Shown: piece by piece, positions 9,215 to 64,000 of the stretch
How the letters are laid out: each line of letters starts with the position of its first letter
How positions within the stretch are numbered: the first letter of the stretch is position 1
DNA from: Muribaculaceae bacterium
GTDB taxonomy: Bacteria; Bacteroidota; Bacteroidia; Bacteroidales; Muribaculaceae
DNA length: 64,000 bases
Reading direction: 5' to 3'
Assembly: GCA_009775365.1 (NCBI GenBank)
Contig: VSPM01000001.1
Location: 27,735-91,734 of the forward strand
Made by a program: the position numbers and the translations under genes
Notes under the pieces: model-generated
What the model saw: the letters and a program-made list of their open reading frames with translations, nothing else
What the model was told of the DNA's origin: nothing
The model's database searches: none

Positions 9215-9329
9215 ATAATAAAAACGTGTCTGCCGGGTCGGATATTGCGCTTTGTGAAAGGCGAAGATGTCCATATTATCGTCTCGGCGGTGAAATTTAG
9301 ATCAGAACAAGCCCACAGTACACATACGC

Positions 9330-38647: not shown

Positions 38648-39406
38648 TTAGTCTTTGCATTTTGCGGCGATGAAATGACGATTCATGCGGCCGATGTTTT
38701 CAAGTTTGATGTTTTTGGGGCACTCGGCAGAGCATGCGCCGGTGTTGGTGCAGTTTCCGAATCCGAGTTCGTCCATCTTGTCGACCATGGCTTTTGCGCG
38801 GCGATATTTCTCCACTTCGCCCTGGGGAAGGAGGGCGAGCTGGCTGATCTTAGCCGACACGAAAAGCATGGCAGAACCGTTCTTGCAGGCAGCCACGCAG
38901 GCTCCGCAGCCGATGCAGCTTGCAGAGTCCATGGCTTCGTCAGCCTTCACCTTTGAGATGGGAAGGTTGTTGGCATCCTGAGCGCCTCCGCAGTTGAACG
39001 ACACATAGCCGCCGGCCTGCTGGATTTTGTCGAATGCGTTGCGGTCTACCATAAGGTCTTTAATCACCGGGAAAGCGGCCGAACGCCAGGGCTCTACAGT
39101 GATTGTCTCGCCGTTCTGGAAACGACGCATATAGAGCTGGCATGTGGTTGCGCCGGTGGCAGGGCCGTGAGGATGGCCGTTGATGTAAAGCGAGCACATG
39201 CCGCAGATACCCTCGCGGCAGTCGTGGTCGAACACGATTGGCTCCTCTCCTCTCTCAACGAGAGTCTCGTTGAGAATGTCGAGGGTCTCCAGGAAGGAGG
39301 TATCGGGAGTGGTCTCGACATCGGAATAAGTCACAAACCCGCCCTTTTCTCTCGGATTGGCCTGACGCCAAACCTTGAGGTTGACTTTCATTATATTTTC
39401 TTCCAT
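38648..39406 (-). CDS. frdB: fumarate reductase/succinate dehydrogenase iron-sulfur subunit
   Basis: Cys clusters [20 protein letters not shown] and [12 protein letters not shown]. Confidence 0.9.
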
Positions 39407-39458
39407 GATTGAAATTTCTGTTTAGTAGCCGGAGGGAAAATTCCCGCCGGAAGAGGAA

Positions 39459-41483
39459 TTATGACTTATAGTTACGTGTCTGCACCTTGATTGCCTCATA
39501 GTGGAGCTGCTCCTTGATGAGGGTCGGGGCCTGGTTGTCGTTGCCGGCATAGTCCCAGCAGCTCACATAGAAGTAATCTTTGTCATCGCGGAGCGCCTCG
39601 CCTTCGGGAGTCTGGTATTCTGTGCGGAAGTGACCGCCGCAGCTCTCGTTGCGGTTGAGCGCGTCATAGGCAATGAGCTCGCCCATTGTGATGAAGTCGT
39701 TGAGACGGAACGCCTTGTCGAGCTCTATGTTCATGCCCTCTTGTGTGCCGGGCACGAAGAGGTCATTATTGAATGTCTCGCGGATATCTTTGAGTTTTCT
39801 GAGAGCGAGTTCAAGACCTTCCTTGTCGCGGGCCATGCCCACATATTCCCACATGATGTGGCCGAGCTCCTTGTGGATAGAATCGACAGAGCGTTTCCCT
39901 TTGATGTTCATGAGGCGGTCGAGGTTTGCCTGGCATTTAGCCTCCGCTGCGTCGAATTCAGGAGTGTCGGTTGAGAAATGAGGAATTGTAATCTGGTCGC
40001 TGAGGTAGTTCTGGATAGTGTAGGGGAGCACGAAGTAACCGTCGGCAAGACCCTGCATGAGGGCAGATGCGCCGAGACGGTTGGCGCCGTGGTCGGAGAA
40101 GTTGCACTCGCCAATCGCGAAGAGACCCTTGATTGATGTCTGGAGCTCGTAGTCCACCCAGATGCCACCCATTGTGTAGTGGATAGCGGGGAAGATCATC
40201 ATCGGGTTGTAATAGTTCACGCCGTTAACTTCGCGAGCGAATTCGCCGGGGTTGACGTCGGTGATTTCCTCATACATGTCGAAGAGGTTGCCGTAGCGCT
40301 GGCGAACCACGTCGATTCCGAGACGGTTGATAGCCTCAGAAAAGTCGAGGAACACGGCGAGACCTGTGTTGTTGACACCGAATCCGGCGTCGCAACGCTC
40401 TTTGGCAGCGCGTGAAGCCACGTCGCGGGGCACGAGGTTACCGAATGCCGGGTAGCGGCGCTCGAGATAGTAGTCGCGATCCTCTTCGGGGATGTCGCTG
40501 CCCTTGATCTGGCCTTTCTGAAGTTTCTCAGCATCTTCTTTCTTCTTGGGCACCCAGATGCGGCCGTCGTTACGAAGCGACTCTGACATAAGTGTGAGCT
40601 TAGACTGCTTGTCGCCGTGCACGGGGATACAGGTGGGGTGAATCTGCACATAAGCGGGGTTTGCGAAGTAAGCACCCTTGCGGTAGCAAGCCATCGCAGC
40701 CGAGCAGTTGCAACCCATAGCGTTGGTAGAAAGGAAGTAGGTGTTGCCATAACCGCCTGTGGCGATAACCACAGCGTGAGCGGCGAAGCGCTCGAGCTTG
40801 CCTGTCACGAGGTTCTTGGCGATGATGCCGCGTGCGCGCTCCACACCGTCTTTGTCTTTGATGAGCACCACGTCGTGCATTTCATAGCGGTTGAAGCTCT
40901 TCACTTTGCCGGTCTGGATCTGACGGTTGAGCGAAGAATAAGCGCCGAGGAGGAGCTGCTGGCCTGTCTGGCCCTTGGCATAGAATGTGCGGCTCACCTG
41001 AGCTCCACCGAAAGAACGGTTGGCGAGAAGGCCGCCGTATTCGCGTGCGAAAGGCACACCCTGTGCCACACACTGGTCTATGATGTTGTTTGACACCTCA
41101 GCAAGACGATAAACGTTTGCTTCACGGGCACGGTAGTCGCCGCCCTTTACAGTGTCGTAGAAAAGACGGTAGATAGAGTCGCCGTCGTTCTGATAATTCT
41201 TGGCTGCGTTGATACCGCCCTGCGCTGCGATTGAGTGAGCGCGGCGGGGGCTGTCCTGAATGCAGAAGTTAAGCACATTGAAGCCCATTTCCGCAAGTGT
41301 GGAAGCCGCGGAGGCTCCGGCAAGACCTGTGCCTACCACAATCACGTCGAGACGACGCTTGTTGGCGGGGTTCACAAGTTTCTGATGAGCCTTGTAGTTG
41401 GTCCATTTCTCAGCGACAGGACCCTCCGGGATCTTGGAATCAGCCGGATTCATTACTTTGATATTCTCTTTTATATTTTCCAT
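39459..41483 (-). CDS. frdA: fumarate reductase/succinate dehydrogenase flavoprotein subunit
   Basis: FAD-binding [26 protein letters not shown] and HPTCIP, with a typical length. The start may be the internal MNPADSK at 41453. Confidence 0.9.
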
Positions 41484-46944: not shown

Positions 46945-48573
46945 ATGATTGAGTTGGTTGCTTTATTACTTTTGACGATGTCATCGGCAGCGGTTACGCT
47001 GCCGGTCGACACAGCGACGTATGCTGGCAGTTTTTATGAGGAGACAGCCTCGCTGAATCCGGAACGGCTTCTTGCAGTGGCTGACAGCGCTTACAAGGCG
47101 CGCGACAACAGCCTTGCCATGTCGCTTTATCTTTCGATATGTGGAAGAGATTCGGAAGATTTTTGCCCCGAAATAAAGATTAAGGCATATATAGGTGCCG
47201 GTGATGTCATGATGCGCAAATGTTATTATCCGGGGGCGCTTGAATATTATGTAGAAGGATTGATGCTGTGCGAGACTGACACTGCCATGTGGCGCCGATA
47301 TTCCGGAGAATTTTATAAAAATATAGGGAATGTGTATTCTTCCCTCAATGATTATGAGCAGGGTATTCATTATTATAAACTCGCTCTTGAAGAGAGCGAC
47401 CCTAAGCAGAATGGTCTTCGGGTGCGCACATTGTATAATCTTGCAGGATTCAGCACATATGTGGGAAATGCGAAGGAAGCAAGACAATATCTCGCTCAGG
47501 CACGCAAGTGCAACTATCCATGGAACGATGTGACGCGGTTTCTGGACGTGTTTATAGAGGGTCTGGTGCTTGGTTGCGAGGGTCATAGCCGTGAGGCGAT
47601 AGCAAATCTGCGCAAATCGGAGAAATATGCCATTGATCATGGCATGAGCGCACGTTATCTGTGTTCTGCCCGTCAGCATCTCTACGTGTTATACGGTGAA
47701 ACAGGCAGGACAGACTCAATGTATTATTATCTTAAAGGCTGTGAGGAGAGTGCCGAAAGAAATGGGATCCGGCAGATGTTTCCGGGGCTTCTGTCTGACA
47801 TTGCCGACTATCATTATAGTCATGGCGATTCTGTGGCCGGCAAGGAATACCGATATCGCTATCTTGATCTCAGAGATTCTATTGGAAATGAGCGCGAATT
47901 TGATGCCGTGAAGCAGGTTCAGTTTCAGTATGAGTCTCGTAAAGTGGCCGGGAAGATTGAGTCACTTCGTTTGGAGAAGGATAAAAGCGAGGCGTTGATC
48001 GTAAGGCAGCGTGTCTGGTTGCTTGCAGTTGGGGGCGGGCTTATAATAGTTGGTGCGTTCCTATGGATTATCGCCTGGCAGAATAGAAATCTTAAAAGGA
48101 GTTATCTAAGTCTGTATAATATAAACCGAGACAGTGCCCGCAGAGAAGAGGAGCAGAAGTATGGGTCGAGCAATCTGAAAGAGGAGCGCATCGGCGAGTT
48201 GGCTAAGGATATTGAAGAACTGATGGATGGCGAAAAGATCTATTGCGAGCCTGAATTTTCATTAGATATGCTTTCAGACCGAGTCGGTGTCAACAGCAAA
48301 TATGTTTCGCAGACCATCAACATGGCATTCGGAAAAAATTTCAGTAATTATGTCAATGACTATAGGGTGCGACTTGCATGCGAGAGGCTCGAGGATGACG
48401 CATATTCCCACTACACAGTGGCGGCAGTGGGGGAGAGTGTGGGCTTCAAATCGCAGTCATCGTTTACAAGTGTGTTCCGTAAGATTACAGGTTTAAGTCC
48501 GTCTATGTTTCGTAAGATGTCAATTTTTGACAAAAATAGGGAACAATGCTCAAAAAATATATCAGATTCATGA
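46945..48573 (+). CDS. TPR-repeat, single-TM, AraC-type HTH transcriptional regulator
   Basis: TPR-like repeats (YKNIGNVYSSLNDYEQGIHYYKLALE), a TM helix (VWLLAVGGGLIIVGAFLWIIAW) and an AraC HTH (VGESVGFKSQSSFTSVFRKITGLSPSMFRK). Confidence 0.75.
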   Translation: MIELVALLLLTMSSAAVTLPVDTATYAGSFYEETASLNPERLLAVADSAYKARDNSLAMSLYLSICGRDSEDFCPEIKIKAYIGAGDVMMRKCYYPGALEYYVEGLMLCETDTAMWRRYSGEFYKNIGNVYSSLNDYEQGIHYYKLALEESDPKQNGLRVRTLYNLAGFSTYVGNAKEARQYLAQARKCNYPWNDVTRFLDVFIEGLVLGCEGHSREAIANLRKSEKYAIDHGMSARYLCSARQHLYVLYGETGRTDSMYYYLKGCEESAERNGIRQMFPGLLSDIADYHYSHGDSVAGKEYRYRYLDLRDSIGNEREFDAVKQVQFQYESRKVAGKIESLRLEKDKSEALIVRQRVWLLAVGGGLIIVGAFLWIIAWQNRNLKRSYLSLYNINRDSARREEEQKYGSSNLKEERIGELAKDIEELMDGEKIYCEPEFSLDMLSDRVGVNSKYVSQTINMAFGKNFSNYVNDYRVRLACERLEDDAYSHYTVAAVGESVGFKSQSSFTSVFRKITGLSPSMFRKMSIFDKNREQCSKNISDS

Positions 48574-48657
48574 ATCTGGCGATATGGGGCTTTGGGAAAT
48601 TGCAATACTAATGTAAATTTGCAAACGAACATAACGACTAACTATAACAGTTTAATT

Positions 48658-51354
48658 ATGGAAATGAAGCATTTTTACTTATCTATGGCGCTGGCCGGAG
48701 CACTGACTGTTCAGGCAGTTCCTGTTGCTAAGCCTTATTACGGGCAGGTGTCAGAACCGGGTAAAAGCAGTGTGCTGCTTGACCGTGCTGCATGGCGTGC
48801 GCCCATGCGTGTGACAGTTGACGAGCTCTTCGCTTGTCCTGGGAATACGGTGCTCGACGGGCCGTTTAAATCGGAAGAAGTCGGCTATCAGGGGTTCCAG
48901 AGTTCAGACCAGGGTCGACCCGGTATGCCCACAAAGTTCTATCAGGCGTTTCATGGCTGTTATAACAGTGTGAATGCAGTGAGAGTCATTGGCCTTTTCA
49001 ATTATTTCGACGATGAGGAGTATACCTGGTATGGCTGCGACAGTCGAGGAGGAGTTCAAGACGACTATACAATGACAGAACCTGTCACCTTCGAGGTTTC
49101 TTTCTACACCATGGGGGCTGACGGTCTTCCCGGAGAGTGTGTCTACACTAAGAATATCGACATCATCGGGCGTTATCTTGGTGTCACTTATGGTTCAGGC
49201 GACGATTCTTCAGCGTTATACGAGTTTAGCACAGAACTTGGTGAGGAGGTGCGCCTTGAGTCGGGATTTTTGTCGTTCAGCGCAGCGGACCTCGGAAATG
49301 AGCCGTCATGCTGGTTCTCGCTGTTCACAGCCGACACATCAATCGACTATGGCTTTGTGCTTCTTGGCGACTACGGCATGAACTATTCTAATCTTCCGTC
49401 TGTGTTCAGCCTTATGGGCGACGGTGGCCCTGTAGCTCAGAAAGCTTTGAGAATTGACAAGCTGTCAGCTCCATCGTCAAGTGCAACCGGCACACACGAG
49501 AAAGTAACGGTTAAGATAATCAATGTGGGAGCAGAAGAATTGACCGACGTGGTTCTTGATCTTCTTGTTGACGGCAAAGTGGTTGCAACAGAGGCTGTGC
49601 CTGCGTCTATCGCCTCTCAAGGAGCATGCAACTATACATTCCTTAGGAGAGTTGACCTCTCGGGCGATGGCGAACATCTTGTGGAAGTGAGAAACGCAAC
49701 GCCCGGCGATGAGGGTGTGAGCCTTGCGTCTGCTTCTGTGAAAACTTACACATGCTCGGAAGGTGAATGGTGTGGCTCTGGAAGTCAATATGAAAATGAC
49801 GAGATAAAGATTTCTCGCGTAAAGATCGGCACAATCGACAATGAAAGCGGAGCCGGCAGTTACAGCGATTATTATGATGATATTTTCACAGAGATACGTC
49901 GAGGTGAAAAATTGCTTCTTGAAATGGAGCCGATGGAGACGGCCGTTACAGGCGTGTGGGTAGACTGGAATAATGATGGCGTATTCTCCGGCCCCGGCGA
50001 AGAGATTGGCTATATCTATGACAAGCCTCTTGAAGTTTCGATTCCTGATGGCATAAGTGTGGAGGAAGGCATGAAACGCATGCGCATCGTTATGGATGTT
50101 TATGGTGAGCCTACTCCTTGCGGAAGCTATTATTTCGGAGAGACTGAGGATTATGGCCTTATGGTAACACGCAATTCAGGCACACCGTCGCTTGGCCTAA
50201 GCCTTGCCGAAGTCGCAGCCGACATGTCCAAAGGAGAAGAAAAGGAGGTTTCTTTGGATTTGTTCAATAACGGTGACGCTGTTCTCAATGCGAAACTGAG
50301 TGTGAACTATTCGCTTCCCACGGTGTATGAGCCGCGTCAGCTGGCTCCTGTAAAGGATTTTGGCAAGAAGGTTATGAATCGCAAGGTTTCAGCCAAGGTT
50401 TCTGAGCCTGTGGTTGATGCCGATGTCAAGAAGGTGCTTCGCTACGACGGCGGCTTTGAATCGTCGGTAGCTCTCGAGAACTACTCTTCTGCGATATTTG
50501 CACATTATTATCCGTCAGATGTAATGCATGCTCTTGAGGGTATGGCTTTGTCGAGTGTGGATGTCTATATCAATGAAATGCCTGCGAAGGCCAAGATTAA
50601 TGTCTACGGACAGGGAGAAGGCGGCAAGGCCGGAGCCTTGATAGCCGAGCAGCCGTTCGAGGCCGTTGCAGAGAGCTGGAACCATGTGGTGTTTGACACT
50701 CCTGTGTCCATCACCGGAGAAGATCTGTGGTTCGGTGTTCAGTTCGATGACATGGACAGCAAAGGATATTACATAGGAGTGGACGGCATATCAGCCGTGG
50801 CCGGATATGGCGACCTCTGCAATATTGGAGGAGACACATGGTGGTCGATGATGGAACTTGGAATTGACCATAATTTCTGCATCCGTGGCAATGTAACCGG
50901 CGCTGTAACTGCTGCGCTCGACTGGCTCAGCCTTGATATAGATGACATGGCTATAGCAGCCGGCGATAACGGAACTGTCAAAGTTGTGATGAGCACCGAG
51001 AATATTCCTTCCGGCATGTATGAGGCCACGATAGAGATTCGCTCGAATGACGAACTGAAACCTCTTTACAGTGTGCCGGTGTATGTGAGCAACGGCATTA
51101 TGACCGGAGTGGACAATGCTTCGCTGGTTCGCACTCAGGTGAAAGTTGAGAACGGGAACGTGGTGATTGTTTCTGATTTCAATATGCTTGGCGTTGACGC
51201 ATATGATGTGGCAGGTCGCAAGGTTGCGTCAGAGCGCACAATGGGATGCCGTCATGAGATTGGCCTTGACAATTTTGGGGACGGAGTGTATGTGTTGAAC
51301 GCGATTTACACCGATGGCACGCGCGAGACATTCAAGATTGCAGTTGCCCGTTGA
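48658..51354 (+). CDS. large secreted protein with a GEVED-like motif and a T9SS C-terminal sorting domain
   Basis: The start is at MEMKHFYLSMALAGALTVQA (signal peptide). YYFGETEDYGLMV resembles the GEVED motif. The C-terminal GDGVYVLNAIYTDGTRETFKIAV resembles a T9SS tail. Confidence 0.6.
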   Translation: MEMKHFYLSMALAGALTVQAVPVAKPYYGQVSEPGKSSVLLDRAAWRAPMRVTVDELFACPGNTVLDGPFKSEEVGYQGFQSSDQGRPGMPTKFYQAFHGCYNSVNAVRVIGLFNYFDDEEYTWYGCDSRGGVQDDYTMTEPVTFEVSFYTMGADGLPGECVYTKNIDIIGRYLGVTYGSGDDSSALYEFSTELGEEVRLESGFLSFSAADLGNEPSCWFSLFTADTSIDYGFVLLGDYGMNYSNLPSVFSLMGDGGPVAQKALRIDKLSAPSSSATGTHEKVTVKIINVGAEELTDVVLDLLVDGKVVATEAVPASIASQGACNYTFLRRVDLSGDGEHLVEVRNATPGDEGVSLASASVKTYTCSEGEWCGSGSQYENDEIKISRVKIGTIDNESGAGSYSDYYDDIFTEIRRGEKLLLEMEPMETAVTGVWVDWNNDGVFSGPGEEIGYIYDKPLEVSIPDGISVEEGMKRMRIVMDVYGEPTPCGSYYFGETEDYGLMVTRNSGTPSLGLSLAEVAADMSKGEEKEVSLDLFNNGDAVLNAKLSVNYSLPTVYEPRQLAPVKDFGKKVMNRKVSAKVSEPVVDADVKKVLRYDGGFESSVALENYSSAIFAHYYPSDVMHALEGMALSSVDVYINEMPAKAKINVYGQGEGGKAGALIAEQPFEAVAESWNHVVFDTPVSITGEDLWFGVQFDDMDSKGYYIGVDGISAVAGYGDLCNIGGDTWWSMMELGIDHNFCIRGNVTGAVTAALDWLSLDIDDMAIAAGDNGTVKVVMSTENIPSGMYEATIEIRSNDELKPLYSVPVYVSNGIMTGVDNASLVRTQVKVENGNVVIVSDFNMLGVDAYDVAGRKVASERTMGCRHEIGLDNFGDGVYVLNAIYTDGTRETFKIAVAR

Positions 51355-55000: not shown

Positions 55001-56077
55001 TCAATTGAATATTTGTGATGATATTGTTTTGATTATATTGATTGTGTCATCCTTGGCGTTAATTAGCTTCGAAAATTTAAACAAGCCATCAACAAAATCC
55101 CGGATTGTTACAACCTTTAAATCAGCAATTCTCATTTTTGCGTAGCTGAGGATAGAAATCAAACAGCAATAATGACCTTCTCTCCCAATCTTCTTCAAGG
55201 CTTGGTATACGGCATCTTCATCAAAGTTAACTTTCTTGCCGTATATGAAAAGGCTTGATGTCAAATTAGCCTGGCGGAATTTTGAAATAGCATGAATAAC
55301 ATCCTGCTCTGAGAAATTCTTGTCCTTTACCTCAATTGCATTTACCAATGTACCCTCAGAGTCAAAGATGTCGATGTCTCCAACTTCTTTTGAAGATGAG
55401 CCGCTCTCATTGACTTTATGGGGAACAACCTTATAGTCTTTACCAAGATATAGGCGTTCCAGTTCAGCAACCACTAATGGACATATCTCACCGTCCATTG
55501 TGTGATTTGTAATTTTATAAATGTAGTCGAGAACCAATTGCGAAAACTCACTTACGTCAATCAGTGCATCACCTATTGAAAATTTTTTAAGGTAGTTTTC
55601 ATGATTCTGCTTCAGCACTGCCATTGCAGATTTAAGATACTTATAGGCTATTTCACTGGTTGTGACGCTTGATAGTACGCGAATAACACTTTCAAGGGTT
55701 TCTCTATCTCGTCCTGCTCTTACTGCATTATCCGTAGATAAAGTGACAAAGCGTGCGGGTTTATTAAGGAATGGCTCATTTGAGTCTCCAAGACTACCTT
55801 GGAGTTTTAGCCGTTCAAATGGAACAATAACCTTATGACACAAAGACCTTGCATCAAATTTGCCTTGCTTACCGTCACCTTTCTGAAGACTTAAGGCATC
55901 TACCGCCTGATTTGTGGCTTTTGCAAGTAATGCATTAACCAAGATATAACGATAAGTTTTGAGGCTGCCGGTAAGGACGGAATATATGGTTTCTCCAATA
56001 TCGTCATTGGCTGGATCAGCCTCTGCTAATGCTCTTTCTAATATCAACCCTGCGGTTCTAAAATCAATTGTTGCCAT
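55001..56077 (-). CDS. type II restriction endonuclease (PD-(D/E)XK fold), specificity unknown
   Basis: It lies 2 nt downstream of a C5-methyltransferase. A candidate catalytic motif is GDIDIFD...NAIEVKDK (D...E-x-K). The region is AT-rich. Confidence 0.65.
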   Translation of the reverse strand: MATIDFRTAGLILERALAEADPANDDIGETIYSVLTGSLKTYRYILVNALLAKATNQAVDALSLQKGDGKQGKFDARSLCHKVIVPFERLKLQGSLGDSNEPFLNKPARFVTLSTDNAVRAGRDRETLESVIRVLSSVTTSEIAYKYLKSAMAVLKQNHENYLKKFSIGDALIDVSEFSQLVLDYIYKITNHTMDGEICPLVVAELERLYLGKDYKVVPHKVNESGSSSKEVGDIDIFDSEGTLVNAIEVKDKNFSEQDVIHAISKFRQANLTSSLFIYGKKVNFDEDAVYQALKKIGREGHYCCLISILSYAKMRIADLKVVTIRDFVDGLFKFSKLINAKDDTINIIKTISSQIFN

Positions 56078-56079
56078 AA

Positions 56080-57183
56080 TTAGAATAGTCCTGAATAAAT
56101 AATTGGAGCATTTCCTTTAATTACGTCAATAACCATAGAGCATACAGCTTTAGAGAGATTGCAAGGCACTGCATTTCCTATTTGGGTATACTGTGCTGAT
56201 TGTGAACCGCAGAATTTATATTCTAAAGGAAATGTTTGGATAACTCGTGCTTCATCGACAGTCATTCGCCGCAAATAGCCGGGTACTATCTCTGTTTTTG
56301 CAATTGACGAGTCTTTTTCAACTCTATCTCGGTAATCCTCAATCCAAGGAGACTTACCATTGTACAAAGCGTTTTCATCAATTATAGGGGTTTTATTGCC
56401 CCCCATTGAAGCAGGTAATGTGGCGCTATAGCCATCCAATTTTAACGGACGACCAAGCCCGTTGAAAAGCATTCCGGCATAAGCAGATTTCCGTAATACG
56501 GGATTCTGTGTAAGAGTTATTCGTGCTTTACAAAGATTTTTATTATTACCTTCGCCGGCCTTATCAAGAACAGCTAAAGCTTCTCTTACACTTTTAGCCT
56601 TTACCTTGTACGGAATAATCATACTATCCAAGTCTGGAGGTGAGGGTGACCCATTATGAAATCCCACAAAGAAAACTCGTTCTCTTGCTTGCGGAACATC
56701 AAAGTCTGAGGCATTTAAAACCATGAAATTCACGGAATATCCCAAGTCTGCAAACTTTGCCAAAAGTGCTGCTCTTACAGATGCCCACTTTTCGAGGGTT
56801 GCAAGCGCCTTTACATTTTCCATGACAAATGCTTTCGGCTTAACTGTTTCTATGACTTTAGCGTAACTCCATATTAGTTTGCTTCGCTCATCGTTGGCAT
56901 CCATTTTGCCTGCCACAGAAAAACCCTGACATGGCGGACCTCCAATAACCAGGTCTATGTTATCGTAGTCCGAAAGAGAAGGAATATATGAGTTTATGTC
57001 ACCTTGATGGATGTGTTCTCCAATATTCAAGGCATAAGACTCACATGCCTCTTTCTTCATGTCATTTGCCCATATAATCTGAGCTCCTGCATAAATAGCG
57101 CCAATATCCAATCCACCTGCACCGGAGAATAGAGAGATGGTTCGAATAGTATTGGAGGCTAATTTGTCTTTTATTTCCTTCAT
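56080..57183 (-). CDS. DNA (cytosine-5)-methyltransferase
   Basis: Motif I LFSGAGGLDIG, motif IV GGPPCQGFS, ENV (FVMENVKAL), QARERVF and a C-terminal GNAVP. The start is at MKEIKDK (57183). Confidence 0.9.
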   Translation of the reverse strand: MKEIKDKLASNTIRTISLFSGAGGLDIGAIYAGAQIIWANDMKKEACESYALNIGEHIHQGDINSYIPSLSDYDNIDLVIGGPPCQGFSVAGKMDANDERSKLIWSYAKVIETVKPKAFVMENVKALATLEKWASVRAALLAKFADLGYSVNFMVLNASDFDVPQARERVFFVGFHNGSPSPPDLDSMIIPYKVKAKSVREALAVLDKAGEGNNKNLCKARITLTQNPVLRKSAYAGMLFNGLGRPLKLDGYSATLPASMGGNKTPIIDENALYNGKSPWIEDYRDRVEKDSSIAKTEIVPGYLRRMTVDEARVIQTFPLEYKFCGSQSAQYTQIGNAVPCNLSKAVCSMVIDVIKGNAPIIYSGLF

Positions 57184-57534
57184 ATATGATAAGAACCACC
57201 AGGTAGGCTGACAGGCGACCAAACCTTTGCGTCTACAAGGAAGTTCCGTTATATCGTGTGATAAGATTTCTCTTACATTATGGGTGGTCTTTGTCAGCGA
57301 AGCGCTTTAGGTAGCAAATTTAGATAAAAATCCTGAGATTTCTACACCGGCAAAATAAAGAAATGATTTTTCTTTAGAGGAAAGTTAGTGAAAATTTAGT
57401 AAATCCAGGCGATTGCGACACAGTTTGTTTGTAGAGTAAAGGTGTAATGTAAACCGAATGTGTGTTAATTTGCTGCGGCCTGAGAGGCGAAATAACACTT
57501 TTTAAGCCGGTCTGTGGTTGACTGAGATAAGTTT

Positions 57535-57560
57535 TGTGCAGGCCCGGCCGGGCCTGCACA
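57535..57560 (-). terminator. GC-rich palindromic hairpin 5 nt after the porin stop
   Basis: tgtgcaggccc ggcc gggcctgcaca. No T-run follows on the minus strand, so its terminator function is uncertain. Confidence 0.4.
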
Positions 57561-57564
57561 AAAT

Positions 57565-58848
57565 TTAGAAACTTACCTGAAGCATGGCCTCAAGGCGATT
57601 GTCATGAGCCTGCATACCTCCGTAGTCAACTCTTCTTCCGTAGATGTATTCCAGTCCTACCTGCACTATGGAGTTGATGTTGTAGAACATATTGCCTAAA
57701 ACATATTGTGCATATTTGTAACCTGATTTCCAAGGCGTCGAAGAGTCAGAATATCGACCGGCATAAGTGCGGACATGACTGTAGGTGGCAGAGCAGAAGA
57801 GTTTGGGAGAAAAACGGTATTGAAGCGATGCGAAACCAGCCCATGCTTTCACAGGGTCAAGCGCCGCCGGGTTGGCAGGATCCGGCATAAGGTCCATTCC
57901 GCATCCGGTGAGGTCTTGGATGTAGCTTGCAATCCCTTTTCCGTAGACAGCCTGATAATATGCAGAGAGGCCGCCTATAATCGGAGTGGTGCCGCTTGCT
58001 TTTATGCCCCACCCGATCTTGTCGATATTTCTACCTGCGGCATCGTTGCGATAATATAGATTCCTTATGATTCCCGAAATCCTTAGCCATCCGGCTCCGC
58101 CGGCCCAATTGCGCTGTATGTAGAATGGAATGTCCGGCACTCGTTGCGACACAGTGGCGGTGCCTGTGGCGTTTGTGAAAGAGTTAGCCGGCATTTCAAA
58201 TCCTATTCCGGCTTTCCATTCATGCTTTTTCCCGAATTCCGGTTCATATCCTATAATGCCGTGAATCACGGCGGTGAAAGCGTTCGGCCCTTCATAATCT
58301 ATTGAGGCCGGCGCGGCCGCCGCGTCTGTAAACAATGAGAAAGTGTAGCCTGCCGTGATACCTCTATATTTAAGATAGGCATGCTGCAGATAGGGGCGAT
58401 ATCCGTCGTTGAGAAAATTCATTGACACATACGCGCCGAGCTGGTCTTTAGTGCCCGGGAGGGCCACCACATTCAGATAGATGTTACTTTGCTGGGCAGA
58501 GACCTGGAACTGCGCTCCGTTGCCCGGCTGCATTGTCATAGGAATCGCGGAGGTGACAAAAAGGCTGGGGCTGCTTATAGGGCTCCCGAAGTCATAATTT
58601 GCCACAGCCTTTATATTGGCGCCAATGCCCATATAAAATTTAGCCTCCTTGCCTAACAGGGTGAAGCGAGGCACATCTTTCATATTGACAATATGAGGCG
58701 CATTTTTATGCAGGGTGACATAATAGTCGGAAGTATCGTTATGCTCCACAATTTTAATGGTCGCATCTCCGGTCTCGTAGATATTCTTGGATTCTCCGTT
58801 TGCCAAAAGCGGGAGAACAAGAAGCGGAAGCAATAATAGATTCTTCAT
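57565..58848 (-). CDS. outer-membrane beta-barrel porin-like protein
   Basis: Signal peptide MKNLLLLPLLVLPLLANG, an alternating amphipathic pattern, and the C-terminal LEAMLQVSF ending in Phe. Confidence 0.65.
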   Translation of the reverse strand: MKNLLLLPLLVLPLLANGESKNIYETGDATIKIVEHNDTSDYYVTLHKNAPHIVNMKDVPRFTLLGKEAKFYMGIGANIKAVANYDFGSPISSPSLFVTSAIPMTMQPGNGAQFQVSAQQSNIYLNVVALPGTKDQLGAYVSMNFLNDGYRPYLQHAYLKYRGITAGYTFSLFTDAAAAPASIDYEGPNAFTAVIHGIIGYEPEFGKKHEWKAGIGFEMPANSFTNATGTATVSQRVPDIPFYIQRNWAGGAGWLRISGIIRNLYYRNDAAGRNIDKIGWGIKASGTTPIIGGLSAYYQAVYGKGIASYIQDLTGCGMDLMPDPANPAALDPVKAWAGFASLQYRFSPKLFCSATYSHVRTYAGRYSDSSTPWKSGYKYAQYVLGNMFYNINSIVQVGLEYIYGRRVDYGGMQAHDNRLEAMLQVSF

Positions 58849-58901
58849 AATATAATTTTATAGAGTTTTTATCCGTAGGAATGAATGCGGGGCGATGCTT
58901 G

Positions 58902-60167
58902 TCAATAGAAACTCTTGTTCACAGAGAATGCGAATTTCTTTCGGCATATAAAGGAAATTGCGGTGTAGACTGTCAGCGAAATGAAACAGACAAAAAATGC
59001 GAATGTCTGATGAGATTGTGCGTGCAACAAATTGCGCAGTCCGTCGATAATCAAGGGCGTCGCTACTATGGCTATATAGTTTGAAGAAAGCACCAACGCA
59101 AGAGCGAGAGTGGATTTCGAGTCAGACGACACCGCACGGCTTGCCTTGTCATAGATAAGTGGCTGGCATATTCCATAGCCAAGGCCGGCAAGAGAAGACC
59201 CGATGCACATTGCCAATTGGTCTTGAAAGAAGGCGAATAGGGCAATCCCGATTGTCATCAACAATGCGGCATAGAAGAATGCGCCGCCTTTGAGCAATTT
59301 TATAATCCAGGGGAGAGAAAACCCCGGAATAAGAATAAATAGATAATAGAGTGCCGTTACCGTGCCTGTAAGTGTGGGGCTCCAGTCGTGTTTCTCGGAC
59401 AGGAAGGGGCAGAAATAAGATACGGTCACGGTAGAGAATGTAATGAAGGCGTACACGCCGATCAATGCCCATATCTTGTTGAAATAAATTCCCGAACGTG
59501 AAGGCTTGGTTGCATTGTCTTCTGAGTCTTCCGTAGCGGAGGCCGTAGTGTGGCTCCTGGATTCCGGAAGGATTACCGATTCCGGTATAAGTTCATTTTT
59601 AGGAATTTCCCGCAGCCAGAAGGATAGCGCGAGTGGCACCAGGCATACCAGATAGACGATGAAGGGGAGATGCCAGTTGCCGTGGCTTAGCCAGCCAACG
59701 GCAAACGTGGCGATCACTAATGAAGAATTTGATATTCCTGAGACGAGTCCCATTTTGTCCATGCGGTATTTCCCTGCGAATGTGTCGGAGATAAGACCTT
59801 TGGAAAAAGGGATTATCAGACCTGCTCCACATCCCAGAATGCAGCTTACCACAATAAGCCAGACCATGCTGTCGGCAAACAGATAGGCTATAGAGCAGGC
59901 TGTGAATATAAGCAATGCCGTTACTATCACTCCTGTCTTATGCCGTGACAGCGATAATTTGCCTGAAAGAAAGACAAAAGGGATTATGGCCAGATTTGGA
60001 AGCAATGTCAGCAGTTGCTTTTCGAGCTGGGTGGTATCCGGAAAAATTTTCGAGAGCGAACCGAGCATGGGCGTGACTGCCAGCCCCGGAAGGTTTACAA
60101 TCAGGGAAATAGACAGAATGGCACAGAATGTCATCACTGAAATCGGGGTTTTGCCGGTCTGGATCAT
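58902..60167 (-). CDS. MFS transporter
   Basis: 421 aa with about 12 hydrophobic segments. It is 5 nt from the upstream antiporter stop. Confidence 0.8.
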   Translation of the reverse strand: MIQTGKTPISVMTFCAILSISLIVNLPGLAVTPMLGSLSKIFPDTTQLEKQLLTLLPNLAIIPFVFLSGKLSLSRHKTGVIVTALLIFTACSIAYLFADSMVWLIVVSCILGCGAGLIIPFSKGLISDTFAGKYRMDKMGLVSGISNSSLVIATFAVGWLSHGNWHLPFIVYLVCLVPLALSFWLREIPKNELIPESVILPESRSHTTASATEDSEDNATKPSRSGIYFNKIWALIGVYAFITFSTVTVSYFCPFLSEKHDWSPTLTGTVTALYYLFILIPGFSLPWIIKLLKGGAFFYAALLMTIGIALFAFFQDQLAMCIGSSLAGLGYGICQPLIYDKASRAVSSDSKSTLALALVLSSNYIAIVATPLIIDGLRNLLHAQSHQTFAFFVCFISLTVYTAISFICRKKFAFSVNKSFY

Positions 60168-60172
60168 AAGTC

Positions 60173-61804
60173 TTATTTTTTAGCTTGGAGCGTTTTCATG
60201 CTGACGGGGCCTGACTCTCCGTCTTCCCATTTGACGGCATGTTCGATTTCTTGAGGAGTGGGCACATATCCGGCCGGCCATTTTGATACGGTGGATGGAG
60301 TGCGTCCTTCAATTTCCCAGTCAAACGGTTCAAAGTCTGTCTGTGGGTCACGCCATTGAGGTTTGCGTTTTGCATAAACTACGAACGGCACCACAAGGAA
60401 GAAAACAGAACCGAGCACAAGGATTATGACATATACCAACGGGCTTCCGGTGTTGATTTGTGTCGGAGGCACAAAACTCAGCACCATTGCCAGGAGGGCT
60501 CCGATTACGCCGACACCGGTTACAAGCCATTTTCCGAATTTGCCGCCGGGCACGCGGAATCCGCGTCTCACGTTAGGCTCTGTGCGGCGTAGGCGTATGA
60601 ATGTGAAATATATAATGAAAACCATTGCCAGATAGATGATTGTAGACATTTGGCTCAGAATCTGATAGGCAGACTGCACGCTCGGCAGCACCACAAGGGC
60701 CAGCGACAGAACCGACACCATGATGCCCTGCACCCAGAGGATAGATGTCTGGATTCCGTTTTTATTAGTTTTCTGAAGGCTTCTGGGCAGGTAGCCTGCC
60801 TTGCCTACTGTGAGTATGCCCGAAGAGGGGGCGACAATGACGCAGCTTACTTGTCCGATAACGCCGAATGTAAGGAACAATGCGACGACATGGCCGAGCC
60901 ATTCGCAGTGTATTGAGGCGAACAGATTGTTATATGCAACAAGAAGAGACGCGAGGAGGTTGATGTCTTTCTGTGGAATGACAAAGCCGATTGCCAGTGT
61001 GCCGAAAATGAATACGCAGAGGATGATTAACACTGCTAAAAATACGGCTTTCGGAAAAGATTTTGCCGGATTCTGCATGTATGGCACATGCACGGCCTGC
61101 ATCTCCATGCCTGCAAAGAACAGGAATATTGAGGCCGCCAGCACTATGGTGCCGAATTTGGAGAAATCCGGCCAAAAAGGCTGGTGAGCATCAATATATA
61201 TATGATTACCCATGCACACATAGATTATGCCAAGGATTATAAGAATTGCTCCCGGGATTATGGTGCCGAAAAGACCTCCCATGGTAGAGAGCTTATTGGC
61301 ATATGCCTGTCCGCGGAATGAATTGAAATTCGCAATCCAGTATACTCCAAGAACCACTGCCAGGGAATATATCACATTTGAAGAAAGTTTTGAGTCGAAT
61401 GATTCCGGCCAGAAGATATAGGCGAGTGTGACAGCTCCGAACATTAGCACGGCAGGGAACCAGATCACCACCATCTGCCAGTCATAATACATGGCCGCCC
61501 ATCCCCATTTAGGCCCGAGGCCTTCGCTGACCCAGCGGAACAGTCCTCCGCTTTTTGTCCAGGTGGAAGCAAGCTCTGCGCAGACGAGAGAGTAGGGGAT
61601 CAGAAAGACAAGACCCGCGAATACATAATAAAAAATAGACGTGTACCCATATTCGGCTTGTGAGGCGAGCCCTCGCATGCTTATGATATTGGTGACAATA
61701 AGAATTGTCATAGCCCACATTCCGATAACCGGCTTTTTAATGGAACTGTTGGTGGCTCGCTGGGCTTTCCCCGAAGAAGAGGGAGTAGATTGAAGATTTG
61801 CCAT
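60173..61804 (-). CDS. APC-superfamily amino acid antiporter (glutamate:GABA antiporter GadC-like) with a C-terminal hydrophilic tail
   Basis: CAELASTWTKSGGLFRWVSEGLGPKWGW and FWPESFD resemble GadC-type antiporters. About 70 hydrophilic C-terminal residues resemble a C-plug. Confidence 0.8.
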   Translation of the reverse strand: MANLQSTPSSSGKAQRATNSSIKKPVIGMWAMTILIVTNIISMRGLASQAEYGYTSIFYYVFAGLVFLIPYSLVCAELASTWTKSGGLFRWVSEGLGPKWGWAAMYYDWQMVVIWFPAVLMFGAVTLAYIFWPESFDSKLSSNVIYSLAVVLGVYWIANFNSFRGQAYANKLSTMGGLFGTIIPGAILIILGIIYVCMGNHIYIDAHQPFWPDFSKFGTIVLAASIFLFFAGMEMQAVHVPYMQNPAKSFPKAVFLAVLIILCVFIFGTLAIGFVIPQKDINLLASLLVAYNNLFASIHCEWLGHVVALFLTFGVIGQVSCVIVAPSSGILTVGKAGYLPRSLQKTNKNGIQTSILWVQGIMVSVLSLALVVLPSVQSAYQILSQMSTIIYLAMVFIIYFTFIRLRRTEPNVRRGFRVPGGKFGKWLVTGVGVIGALLAMVLSFVPPTQINTGSPLVYVIILVLGSVFFLVVPFVVYAKRKPQWRDPQTDFEPFDWEIEGRTPSTVSKWPAGYVPTPQEIEHAVKWEDGESGPVSMKTLQAKK

Positions 61805-62203
61805 AGCAATAGGTGTTTGTGTTTTTCTTTAATGGGTCTGAGAGGCGGCGAGTAAGATTTTATGTTTTCACATCGCTGGCATCAACCCTTTATTTATTGT
61901 AAAAAGAACATGTATTTAAGGCAATTGGTTTAGGAAGATGGCAAATTTCATACATAAGGTCTGTCAATGGCTCGGATGTGAAATTGTTTTTAGGTTAGAT
62001 GTAAACTTTTTTAAGCAAGAAAGTGTTTTAGGTCTAAACAATCGGTCATTCGGTGTTTCTGAATAAGAGACTTCGGGATTGTTCCGACGAAATTATAGTT
62101 ATACGCCGGTATTATCTTGGAAAATCTGAAATCTTAATCTTAAGACAACACATAGTTCCCACTTAACCCGGTATGTTATTCATTTAAAATCCTTATAAAA
62201 ATT

Positions 62204-63361
62204 ATGGCAACAAAAAATTATTCACCTGTTGTGCAGGAGCTTATTGACTTGATAGCCAAGAATGGCTGGGAAGATAGGTTCCAGAAAGCCCTTGATGCCT
62301 GTCATGCGCTTAACACTATTGAGTATGAAAACATCAAGACCCTTGATGACTATTACGATTGGCTGGAAGGAGAGTTGAAATGGATTCCGGTAGAGAATCC
62401 AGAAGGCACTATTGTGTATGAGCATGTCACGATGTTCTATTTCCTCCTTGACCAAAGCCCAGTCAAGGAGCTTCAGACTCCAATCATTCCCTCAAAGCTA
62501 AAGGGCAACGAAGAGCCTCCGCTTACTCCTTTGTCGCAGTGGATGCGGAAATATGTGGTTTCATTCGGAGCATGGATGGATCAGCCGGAGTCGCTTAATG
62601 ATGAAGCTGTAAAAAGCTATTATGATTCTCCCCGTTATAATATGGGAGACTATGAGATGCCTGAAGGGGGTTGGAAAACGTTCAACCAGTTCTTTGCGCG
62701 CCGCAAGAAACCGGGATATATGCCGATTGCCGCAATCAACGACGACCATGTGATCACTTCTCCGGCCGACTCCACCAATGACGGCCAGTGGGAGATTAAT
62801 GCAGAATCTAAGGTTAATATCAAGGGCCTGGAATGGAGCATAGAGGAGCTCCTTGAAGGATCTGAATATAAGGATGACTTCGCCGGCGGCATATGGATTC
62901 ACCAGTTCCTTAACACTACCGACTATCACCGTCAGCATGCGCCTGTAAGCGGCACGGTTCTTGAGGCAAGAGAATTGCAGGGTGTTGTATACCTCGGAGT
63001 GGAGGCAGTTCCTATCGAAGGTGATGAAAAGGGGCGCACTCACATTGTTCGTCGTAAACTTAATGCTCTTGACGAGGCCGGCTATGAATTCTTGCAGATG
63101 CGTGGCCTGATTGTGATACAGTCTTCTATAGGAAAAGTTGCAATCCTTCCGATGGGCATGGCTCAGGTTTCGTCAATTGTGGTGACGGCAGAGAAAGGGA
63201 CAAAGTTGCGTAAAGGCGAGGAAATCTCTTATTTCCAGTTTGGTGGTTCTGATATCGTCATGGTGTTCCAGCGCGAATCGAATGTGAGCATCACAGCCCA
63301 GCCGGGTGTGCATTACAGGTCCGGCACACGTATTGCCATGGCTTATCCCGTAGGAGAATGA
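62204..63361 (+). CDS. phosphatidylserine decarboxylase-family protein with an N-terminal accessory domain (PsiD-like soluble pyruvoyl-dependent decarboxylase candidate)
   Basis: PSD motifs DYHRQHAP and FQFGGS are present (candidate autocleavage and pyruvoyl Ser349, codon 63248-63250). There is no obvious TM helix. The N-terminal domain of about 150 aa is absent from ordinary bacterial PSD. Confidence 0.75.
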   Translation: MATKNYSPVVQELIDLIAKNGWEDRFQKALDACHALNTIEYENIKTLDDYYDWLEGELKWIPVENPEGTIVYEHVTMFYFLLDQSPVKELQTPIIPSKLKGNEEPPLTPLSQWMRKYVVSFGAWMDQPESLNDEAVKSYYDSPRYNMGDYEMPEGGWKTFNQFFARRKKPGYMPIAAINDDHVITSPADSTNDGQWEINAESKVNIKGLEWSIEELLEGSEYKDDFAGGIWIHQFLNTTDYHRQHAPVSGTVLEARELQGVVYLGVEAVPIEGDEKGRTHIVRRKLNALDEAGYEFLQMRGLIVIQSSIGKVAILPMGMAQVSSIVVTAEKGTKLRKGEEISYFQFGGSDIVMVFQRESNVSITAQPGVHYRSGTRIAMAYPVGE

Positions 63362-63378
63362 CAAGTGATGGGCCTTAT

Positions 63379-63408
63379 AGATAACTTCGGATGTTATCTT
63401 GGTTTTTG
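63379..63408 (+). terminator. hairpin 1 after the decarboxylase
   Basis: agataac (63379-63385) pairs with gttatct (63393-63399), followed by tggttttt. Confidence 0.45.
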
Positions 63409-63427
63409 TGTATACTATTAATAACCT

Positions 63428-63480
63428 GACTCCCGATAGAGCCCGTTGATTACTATTGGCGCCCTGTCGGGAGTCTTTTT
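63428..63480 (+). terminator. hairpin 2, immediately upstream of the second antiporter start
   Basis: gactcccga (63428-63436) pairs with tcgggagtc (63467-63475), followed by ttttt. It ends 10 nt before ATG 63491. Confidence 0.45.
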
Positions 63481-63490
63481 ATTTTCTGCT

Positions 63491-64000
63491 ATGAACAGAC
63501 AAACTGTAATTCCTAAAGAATCGCCGGTGACATCGTCAGGACGTAAAAAGAATCTGTCTACAGCGCATGGCTCTCTCTCGATGTGGGCCATGGCTATATT
63601 GATAATCACCTCGATACTTAGCCTTAGAGGATTGCCTTCTGAGGCCAAATATGGTGTCCAGTCTATATTTTTTTATTTGTTTGCGGCGGTTGTTTTCCTT
63701 CTCCCGTTTGCGCTTGTGTGTGCGGAGCTTGCCTCTACCTACACTAAATCGGGAGGGCTTTACCGTTGGGTGTCGGAGGCGTTCGGGCCTCGGCTCGGAT
63801 GGCTTTCGATGTTTCTTGAGTGGCAGACTATTGTGATATGGTTTCCTACGGTGCTGATGTTTGCGGCCGCCTCGCTGGCTTATATGTTCTGGCCGGAGAG
63901 TTTTGACGAACGGCTTGCCTCAAACAAGTTTTATACGCTGGCTATAGCATTGCTGGTTTACTGGCTTTCCACTTGGAACGCATTCCGGGGGCAGAAGTCG
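63491..64000 (+). CDS. second GadC-like APC amino acid antiporter (3' end outside the window)
   Basis: My own translation from ATG 63491 gives MNRQTVIPKESP...CAELASTYTKSGGLYRWVSEAFGPRLGW...FWPESFDERL. It is clearly paralogous to 60173-61804 and stays open to the window end. Confidence 0.8.
   Translation, partial: MNRQTVIPKESPVTSSGRKKNLSTAHGSLSMWAMAILIITSILSLRGLPSEAKYGVQSIFFYLFAAVVFLLPFALVCAELASTYTKSGGLYRWVSEAFGPRLGWLSMFLEWQTIVIWFPTVLMFAAASLAYMFWPESFDERLASNKFYTLAIALLVYWLSTWNAFRGQKS

Follow-up and report, generated by a model that had tools for sequence, protein, structure and literature searches.

Known decarboxylase/antiporter systems and the locus under study

Amino-acid decarboxylases paired with a matching antiporter are a classic means of resisting acid, conserving energy and producing biogenic amines. 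To our knowledge, the decarboxylases in such pairs are either pyridoxal phosphate (PLP) enzymes or the pyruvoyl enzyme of the HdcA type. In GadB/GadC, the gene for a cytoplasmic, PLP-dependent decarboxylase lies beside that of a GadC-family APC antiporter, and in HdcA/HdcP a self-processing pyruvoyl amino-acid decarboxylase is paired with a precursor/product antiporter in Gram-positive hosts, which have neither an outer membrane nor a porin. A histidine decarboxylation system has been described from L. reuteri (PMC6909576), and in a survey published in 2025 on the amino-acid decarboxylases of the gut, the pyruvoyl types comprised only His, Asp-1 and Arg (PMC12484125). PsiD, the L-tryptophan decarboxylase of Psilocybe (PDB 8x4q, 8zia; PMC11929908), is a soluble, self-cleaving pyruvoyl enzyme of the phosphatidylserine decarboxylase (PSD) superfamily that carries a GGS motif and takes a free amino acid as its substrate. 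Here we analyzed a 64,000-nucleotide stretch of the genome of a Muribaculaceae bacterium (GenBank assembly GCA_009775365.1, contig VSPM01000001.1, positions 27,735 to 91,734; hereafter the window), in which the gene for a PSD-like protein is found between two genes for GadC-like antiporters, together with genes for an MFS transporter and a porin.

This locus resembles GadB/GadC in placing the gene of a predicted cytoplasmic decarboxylase beside that of a GadC-family antiporter, but differs from it in the predicted pyruvoyl PSD fold of the enzyme, in an antiporter that scores just under the equivalog cut-off, and in the addition of a dedicated porin and MFS transporter. It differs from HdcA/HdcP as well, since HdcA is unrelated in fold and family (no PF02666) and HdcP falls in a separate APC subfamily, whose model TIGR04298 gave the second antiporter of the window a score of just 19.7 bits. 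PsiD is encoded in a fungal secondary-metabolite cluster, in contrast to the transporter operon observed here. Drawing on sequence features, a predicted fold and conserved gene linkage, we consider it reasonably probable that the module couples a cytoplasmic pyruvoyl amino-acid decarboxylase to precursor/product antiport. It would probably give gut bacteria a vitamin-B6-independent route by which a free amino acid is decarboxylated and the amine exported. In literature searches we found neither this module nor any PSD-family amino-acid decarboxylase described from bacteria, in line with the initial annotation of the locus, which had been made from the sequence alone and knew of no such module being characterized in Bacteroidota.

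A predicted self-processing proenzyme of the PSD superfamily

The PSD-like gene (62204-63361, plus strand) encodes a putative pyruvoyl proenzyme of 385 amino acids, in which PF02666 covers residues 160-378 with 148.1 bits against a gathering cut-off of 22. Approximately 160 N-terminal residues fall outside this match, which agrees with the extra N-terminal domain of about 150 residues described in the initial annotation. The domain (residues 1 to about 159; 62204-62680, plus strand) is acidic and helical, and its approximately 150 residues are hydrophilic with a net charge of -12 and a pI of 4.46. An AlphaFold2 model of the protein (pLDDT 81, pTM 0.72), which like our other structure models represents the unprocessed monomer, has a helical N-terminal domain (residues 8-140) and a beta-rich core.

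Both of the PSD hallmarks that had been noted were located in the translation, with DYHRQHAP starting at residue 240 and FQFGGSD at residue 344, hence a Gly-Ser site at Ser349. Five residues (Asp189, Asp240, His242, Gly348 and Ser349) were invariant in an alignment of 31 homologues. The codons of the triad are at 62768-62770 (Asp189), 62921-62923 (Asp240) and 62927-62929 (His242), with that of Ser349 at 63248-63250. A profile alignment to E. coli Psd paired Asp189, Asp240, His242 and Ser349 with Asp90, Asp142, His144 and Ser254, residues that were experimentally demonstrated to drive autocleavage in the E. coli enzyme (PMC7952604). Because the invariant residues match those required for autocleavage in E. 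coli, the proenzyme is very likely active. Cleavage is predicted between Gly348 and Ser349, and the calculated masses of the resulting beta and alpha chains (39.6 and 4.1 kDa) correspond to the 39 and 4 kDa estimated earlier.

No transmembrane segment was found in the PSD-like protein, with a maximum Kyte-Doolittle mean over 19 residues of 1.58, whereas the two transporters contained 19 and 16 hydrophobic windows. The absence of such a segment had been used as an argument against a lipid PSD; the absence itself stands, but the argument does not, since E. coli PSD has no transmembrane segment either (PMC7952604).

Comparison with lipid phosphatidylserine decarboxylases

The protein could instead decarboxylate phosphatidylserine (PS), lyso-PS or another serine-headgroup lipid, as a housekeeping or accessory enzyme with the transporters as uncoupled neighbors. 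It shares with E. coli Psd (PDB 7cnw, 6l06) the PF02666 core, the D/D-H-S triad, the Gly-Ser cleavage site and the predicted pyruvoyl chemistry, so that the full PSD catalytic triad is in place, and the database names of its homologues are uniformly phosphatidylserine decarboxylase. The lack of transmembrane segments in true PSDs is also compatible with a lipid substrate, and one distant homologue is encoded near a patatin phospholipase. A family hidden Markov model (HMM) run over the six-frame translation of the window matched only the query, leaving no other PSD homologue within its 64 kb. A jackhmmer search started from E. coli PSD retrieved only the long type from 2.3 Mb of fetched loci, which represent a small fraction of any genome and are uninformative on a housekeeping psd.

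The match to the lipid enzymes weakens once their family models and substrate contacts are considered. All eight NCBIfam equivalogs for PSD and archaetidylserine decarboxylase scored far below their cut-offs (e.g. NF001941, 106.3 against 371 bits; TIGR00163, 70.7 against 111.75; TIGR00164, 32.4 against 230; and a further model, 98.6 against 307). E. coli PSD binds the membrane monotopically through basic amphipathic N-terminal helices (PMC7952604), for which we computed a net charge of +7 and a pI of 9.99; the acidic, hydrophilic domain of 160 residues takes their place here. In the same enzyme, Tyr137 and Ser166 bind the phosphate and carboxyl groups of PS (PMC7952604). The profile alignment placed an invariant Phe235 at the Tyr137 position, as in PsiD, and the LFSVN motif containing Ser166 was absent, with a longer, rearranged GDxxG[RK] loop in its stead. 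Of the three residues contacting the PS head group in E. coli PSD, the protein thus lacks two.

Genomic context sets the two proteins apart as well. The gene is patchily distributed, occurs in tandem copies and in a mobile context, and is absent from a close relative, and is therefore ill suited to an essential housekeeping function, while its operon-like linkage to an amino-acid antiporter extends to 68 of 80 loci (see below). The view that this is not the housekeeping lipid PSD was thus supported, and we regard a lipid substrate of any kind as very unlikely.

Relation to PsiD

PsiD had been named as a relative, and it was the top PDB match by every approach used. With the single sequence it was found at 4e-14 (E. 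coli PSD, 8e-11), and with the family profile at 2.4e-21 (E. coli PSD, 2e-15), the profile alignment being restricted to the catalytic domain. A Foldseek search with the AlphaFold2 model also returned PsiD first (8x4q_A; E 3.6e-11, TM-scores of TMq 0.53 and TMt 0.57), over 392 alignment columns as compared with 261 for E. coli PSD. The Phe at the E. coli Tyr137 position, a GD-containing loop 3 and an extra helical N-terminal region are common to the two proteins. Furthermore, a homologue from Metarhizium with 42% identity to the PSD-like protein carries the UniRef name 'PsiD-like domain-containing'.

The resemblance is limited by the N-terminal domain, which had been described as the same accessory domain as that of PsiD. 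The Pfam model of the accessory domain, PF12588, matched neither the whole protein at E<=0.01 nor residues 1-172 at E<=10, and the N-domain had no sequence or profile match to PsiD. Only the fold retains something of the claim, and the moderate TM-scores make the fit of the N-domain to PsiD a loose one. In PsiD, the N-domain supplies loop 1 of the pocket. Overall identity to PsiD is approximately 17-25%. Since neither HMM nor profile recovers a shared accessory domain, the PSD-like protein, as judged from these comparisons, is not a PsiD orthologue but a member of a distinct clade of PSD-like enzymes that are long and soluble. Seven pocket positions of PsiD could be aligned (Phe289, Leu290, Val292, Met373, Thr374, Ile376 and Phe398), corresponding to Phe235, Leu236, Thr238, Met319, Ala320, Val322 and Phe344 here, while loops 1 and 3 were not reliably alignable. 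Conserved basic residues of the protein include Arg283 and Arg284 in loop 3 and Arg300; with a substrate bearing a distal carboxylate, such residues would be expected to face the pyruvoyl group.

Antiporters, MFS transporter and porin

The open reading frame (ORF) list bore out the gene order and coordinates given in the initial annotation, and the same holds for the tightly spaced operon divergent from the PSD-like gene. On the minus strand, the porin and MFS genes are 53 bp apart and the MFS and first antiporter genes 5 bp apart. A divergent intergenic region of 399 bp (61805-62203), presumed to hold the promoters of both transcription units, separates them from the PSD-like gene, which is followed after 129 bp by the second antiporter gene.

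The first antiporter (60173-61804, minus strand; 543 amino acids; PF13520, 182 bits), which we refer to as type A, and the second, type B (63491-64000, plus strand; PF13520, 55 bits), both belong to the GadC-like APC transporters. The type-B ORF is cut by the end of the window, leaving its N-terminal 170 residues, and its identity to type A (59% over 162 residues) supports the paralogy that had been recognized. On TIGR03813, the model for the Gln/GABA (gamma-aminobutyric acid) antiporter and the family that matched best, type A scored 613.9 bits, its relatives 597.6-613.4, and the type-B fragment 188 bits over 142 residues; E. coli GadC itself reached only 313 bits on this model. All antiporter types scored 435-458 bits on NF053662 (Glu/GABA) and 254-284 bits on the models for TyrP and E. 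coli-type GadC, the type-A values for the latter two being 261 and 265 bits (NCBIfam). The best PDB match of type A, and its only close solved relative, was E. coli GadC (4dji, 6e-68). All of the antiporters also share a cytoplasmic C-terminal tail, of about 60 residues in the protein encoded at 60173-61804, with the pattern KRKPxWRDPxTDFxPFDWxIEGR...SKWPxGYxPT, a few positions of which are common to E. coli GadC. This conserved tail may be the equivalent of the pH-gating C-plug.

The MFS transporter (58902-60167, minus strand; 421 amino acids; PF07690, 92 bits) had only weak NCBIfam matches, to drug efflux models and to the aromatic-acid:H+ symporter model TIGR00895 (28 bits against a cut-off of 418), and a PDB search by sequence returned no relative.

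The porin (57565-58848, minus strand; 427 amino acids) was first seen in Pfam only below threshold, with 21.7 bits for DcaP (PF19577, cut-off 27) and 21.4 bits for Porin_2 (PF02530), although many of its homologues carry precomputed matches to one of these two families. Its AlphaFold2 model, built with database homologues (pLDDT 80, pTM 0.79), then confirmed the earlier porin assignment. The top Foldseek match was DcaP of A. baumannii (6eus_A; E 2.8e-24, TMt 0.89, root-mean-square deviation 3.3 A), and the next porins followed at approximately 1e-12, eleven orders of magnitude weaker. All 25 porin homologues taken from the loci described below have a hydrophobic, signal-like N-terminus and a C-terminal Phe, and the family contains many invariant Arg residues. 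On the predicted structure, the protein is a DcaP-like 16-stranded outer-membrane channel with a signal peptide.

DcaP forms trimeric channels that select for anions and pass di- and tricarboxylates, and it is encoded with the MFS transporter DcaK (bioRxiv 10.1101/306035; 10.1101/2025.07.02.662759). The barrel of our porin superposes on it, and an MFS partner is likewise present, as in the Acinetobacter dca operon. The two porins nevertheless share only about 20% sequence identity, with the Pfam DcaP score below threshold, and the MFS protein could not be placed in the DcaK/AAHS family by its TIGR00895 score. DcaP-like proteins were believed to be restricted to Moraxellaceae, whereas the porin here is from Muribaculaceae.

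Conservation of the gene neighborhood

We compared 79 genome loci containing a homologue of the PSD-like gene with the window, for a total of 80, and clustered all of their ORFs. The PSD-like gene was present in all 80 loci with 100 copies, an APC antiporter gene in 68, an MFS gene in at least 33 and a porin gene in at least 25. Only these four families were conserved, while the flanking genes varied by locus, and the genes therefore appear to move as a module. Their commonest order was PSD-like, APC, MFS and porin on one strand. The arrangement in the window, with the porin, MFS and type-A genes divergent from the PSD-like gene and the type-B gene behind it, recurred in the closest relatives (L001-L005 and L008).

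A reciprocal scan of metagenome contigs with the antiporter alignment gave 79 loci. Among these, antiporters of type A (>=64% identity to that of the window) had the PSD-like gene adjacent in approximately 30 of the 31 loci with enough upstream sequence. Type-B orthologues (73-92% identity to the window fragment) were PSD-adjacent in more than 22 genome loci. The neighborhood had been proposed as a check on the decarboxylase/antiporter assignment, and linkage was found in both directions, with the exceptions (locus L088 and orphan type-B genes) that are considered with the proposed function below.

A search for a GadB-type partner, using tblastn with E. coli GadB over the 79 antiporter-anchored metagenome loci, gave no match. 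A PLP-dependent group II decarboxylase of 584 amino acids (PF00282, PLP motif DFHK, no equivalog assignment) was observed directly upstream of the PSD-like gene in nine genome loci (L013, L018, L020 at 8213-9967, L029, L035, L058, L066, L071 and L077) and in metagenome locus L133. It may be an isofunctional partner or may add a second decarboxylation activity that uses the shared antiporter. On gene content, the conserved neighborhood including this enzyme is the signature of a putative amino-acid decarboxylation locus.

Many loci contained two or three tandem PSD-like paralogues (52-64% identity) upstream of a single antiporter gene (L036-L048, L055, L057, L062-L064, L069, L070 and L073; e.g. 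L044:10001-12427). One paralogue clade has Glu in place of Asp189, and GMSNVSS or GMGQVSS replacing GMAQVSS. The tandem paralogues may reflect substrate diversification or form hetero-oligomers.

Distribution and distant relatives

Homologues of the PSD-like protein numbered 3,723 representative proteins at E<=1e-3, of which 211 were retained at E<=1e-30. Close homologues (60-100% identity) came exclusively from Muribaculaceae-type genomes and from rodent and human gut assemblies, among them the isolated strain Lepagella muris NM04_E33 (locus L004, 86% identity). Beyond this family, the nearest relatives, with 40-53% identity over the full length, were from a Theionarchaea metagenome-assembled genome (MAG) and from many fungi (Beauveria, Rhizophagus, Aspergillus, Metarhizium, Ophiocordyceps, Pilatotrama, Ascobolus), followed at greater distance by a Pseudomonadota MAG and an Anoxychlamydiales MAG. 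The motifs PADS, FLNTxDYHRQHA, PMGMAQVSS and YFQFGGSD are common to all of these. None of the relatives outside Muribaculaceae appears to have been characterized. The patchy distribution suggests gene transfer between domains.

Several individual cases were noted among the more remote sequences. Active-site motifs were identical in the proteins P0123, P0124, P0126, P0130, P0132, P0137, P0146 and P0147, which are fungal apart from one from the Theionarchaea MAG. A distant PSD-like gene at L169:3974-7037 lies beside a gene for a radical-SAM/methyltransferase protein and a convergent trpEGDC operon, two tandem PSD-family genes at L085:6001-11056 are followed by one for a B12/radical-SAM protein, and a PSD-like gene at L083:3724-10311 is convergent with MFS, GntP, patatin and OEP genes. 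These three contexts could be small natural-product or lipid pathways. Two fusions were also observed, one of a long PSD-like protein with DUF3425 (P0162 from Aspergillus ibericus, with the UniRef name 'BZIP domain-containing protein') and one with an inosine-uridine nucleoside hydrolase (P0228, JGI/IMG).

Proposed mechanism and substrate

In the mechanism that we propose, the soluble proenzyme would cleave itself at Gly348/Ser349 into the 39.6-kDa beta chain and the 4.1-kDa alpha chain, the latter with a pyruvoyl group at its N-terminus. A free amino acid would condense through its alpha-amino group with this pyruvoyl group to give a Schiff base, leading to release of CO2 and consumption of one proton. 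One or both GadC-type antiporters would then exchange external substrate for the amine product, and the outcome would be a rise in cytoplasmic pH, a proton-motive force and release of the amine, as in GadB/GadC, HdcA/HdcP and TyrDC/TyrP. The DcaP-like porin would be the outer-membrane route for substrate and product, with the MFS transporter as an accessory importer or exporter. In this model we infer that the proenzyme cleaves itself, that its substrate is a free amino acid and which one, that the antiporter performs the exchange, and what purpose the system serves in the cell.

For the substrate, we tentatively favor an acidic amino acid, either L-glutamate, yielding GABA, or less likely L-aspartate, yielding beta-alanine. 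Glutamate is favored because of the antiporter scores on TIGR03813 and NF053662, the position of GadC as the solved relative, the DcaP-like porin and the invariant Arg residues of the porin family. The clade is mainly shared with fungi and was therefore probably exchanged between domains. In its fullest form, the hypothesis would combine a PSD-fold pyruvoyl enzyme that decarboxylates glutamate or a different acidic amino acid, acting as a cofactor-independent and non-homologous analogue of GadB, with cross-domain exchange, an envelope-spanning system and two to three tandem paralogues, a combination that we put forward as speculative.

A number of observations weigh against this proposal, some touching the acidic substrate and others the coupling of enzyme and antiporter. 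Alignable pocket residues are hydrophobic or neutral and give no positive sign of an acidic substrate, and the nearest characterized enzyme, PsiD, uses tryptophan. The antiporters narrowly miss the TIGR03813 equivalog cut-off of 650 bits, and the best PDB relatives of the upstream PLP decarboxylase, by a small margin, are tyrosine-decarboxylase-like (7cwx and 5hsi, 2.5e-15). The occurrence of two or three tandem decarboxylase paralogues per antiporter is left unexplained by the favored model. The closest relative of the window, locus L088 (4075-7725), has both antiporter genes, the MFS gene and the porin gene, and no decarboxylase gene between the antiporters. Its type-A and type-B antiporters are 87% and 92% identical to those of the window and are encoded by divergent neighbors with nothing between them, and the alignment of the two loci shows a clean presence/absence difference of approximately 1.35 kb. 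Type-B orthologues were orphans with unrelated neighbors in approximately 28 metagenome loci. Homologues outside Muribaculaceae (fungi, the Pseudomonadota MAG and contigs of uncertain or probably eukaryotic origin) had no adjacent antiporter and provided no clue to the substrate. Given the near-constant adjacency of the PSD-like gene to type A and the frequent orphan state of type B, the coupling is strong for the type-A/MFS/porin unit and facultative for type B.

A module of the same architecture could also act on an aromatic or other neutral substrate (Trp, Tyr, Phe or 3,4-dihydroxyphenylalanine), with trace amines such as tryptamine, tyramine or phenethylamine as products, in the manner of PsiD in fungi and TyrDC/TyrP in lactic acid bacteria. 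The alignable pocket positions are hydrophobic like those of PsiD, the nearest characterized enzyme and one that acts on Trp, the PLP decarboxylase neighbor is nearest to tyrosine-decarboxylase-like structures, and the antiporters match TyrP with 260-284 bits. The scores for the Gln/Glu-GABA models are, by comparison, more than twice those for TyrP, and the porin resembles a channel for anions and dicarboxylates. PsiD is also a distant guide to the pocket, given its low identity and an N-domain, the source of loop 1, that has no sequence counterpart here; Thr374, which accepts the indole N-H in PsiD, is replaced by Ala320. On balance we consider an aromatic or neutral substrate rather unlikely.

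The loci in which enzyme and transporter are separated raise a further alternative, namely a biosynthetic decarboxylase that serves the cell's own need for beta-alanine, ethanolamine or a polyamine precursor, with the APC, MFS and porin proteins importing the precursor and no role in antiport or acid resistance. The fungal and other bacterial homologues without an adjacent antiporter agree with this, as do the type-B antiporters and locus L088, which show that the transporters exist without the enzyme. The conserved genes of the module also include no regulator of the acid response. The transporter, on the other hand, falls in the GadC/TyrP clade of precursor/product exchangers with a conserved C-terminal tail, and the tandem decarboxylase copies together with the PLP decarboxylase suggest high-flux catabolic decarboxylation and not trace biosynthesis. 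We judge a biosynthetic role unlikely, and prefer decarboxylation coupled to antiport as the reading of the locus, in agreement with the interpretation offered in the initial annotation.

Genomic surroundings

The module is preceded by a SacI-type restriction endonuclease gene (PF09566, 256 bits) and a C5 cytosine DNA methylase gene (PF00145, 237 bits) at 55001-57222 on the minus strand. This island is positioned between pheT and the porin gene, has a GC content of 0.38-0.41 as compared with 0.50-0.56 in its flanks, and is probably a horizontally acquired restriction-modification system. Further upstream (38648-41483, minus strand; 46945-48573 and 48592-51354, plus strand) are genes for the flavoprotein and Fe-S subunits of fumarate reductase/succinate dehydrogenase, a TPR plus AraC-type regulator and a GEVED-domain protein of 920 amino acids. 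These are ordinary chromosomal context with no evident tie to the module.

An Rfam search of 57000-64000 found no riboswitch or other RNA family at E<=1. A scan of the divergent region for sigma-70 consensus promoters and terminators gave no more sites than shuffled sequence, with a consensus that is unsuited to Bacteroidota. A megablast comparison with PLSDB for a plasmid origin gave no match.

Implications

If the proposed function is correct, the PSD-like protein would represent a fourth type of pyruvoyl amino-acid decarboxylase in bacteria, and PsiD-like chemistry would reach beyond the secondary metabolism of fungi into the primary physiology of bacteria. With its dedicated DcaP-like porin, the locus would also be a rare case of a decarboxylase/antiporter module that includes an outer-membrane component. 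Because the genes are uniformly named phosphatidylserine decarboxylase, they would have been overlooked in metagenomic inventories of neuroactive amines.

Muribaculaceae are dominant in the mouse gut, and a hidden source of GABA or other amines in this family would therefore affect the reading of microbiome-gut-brain studies. Should the model hold, Muribaculaceae would supply GABA or other amines, unrecognized so far, to the gut of rodents and humans, and current surveys based on PLP motifs would not see them.

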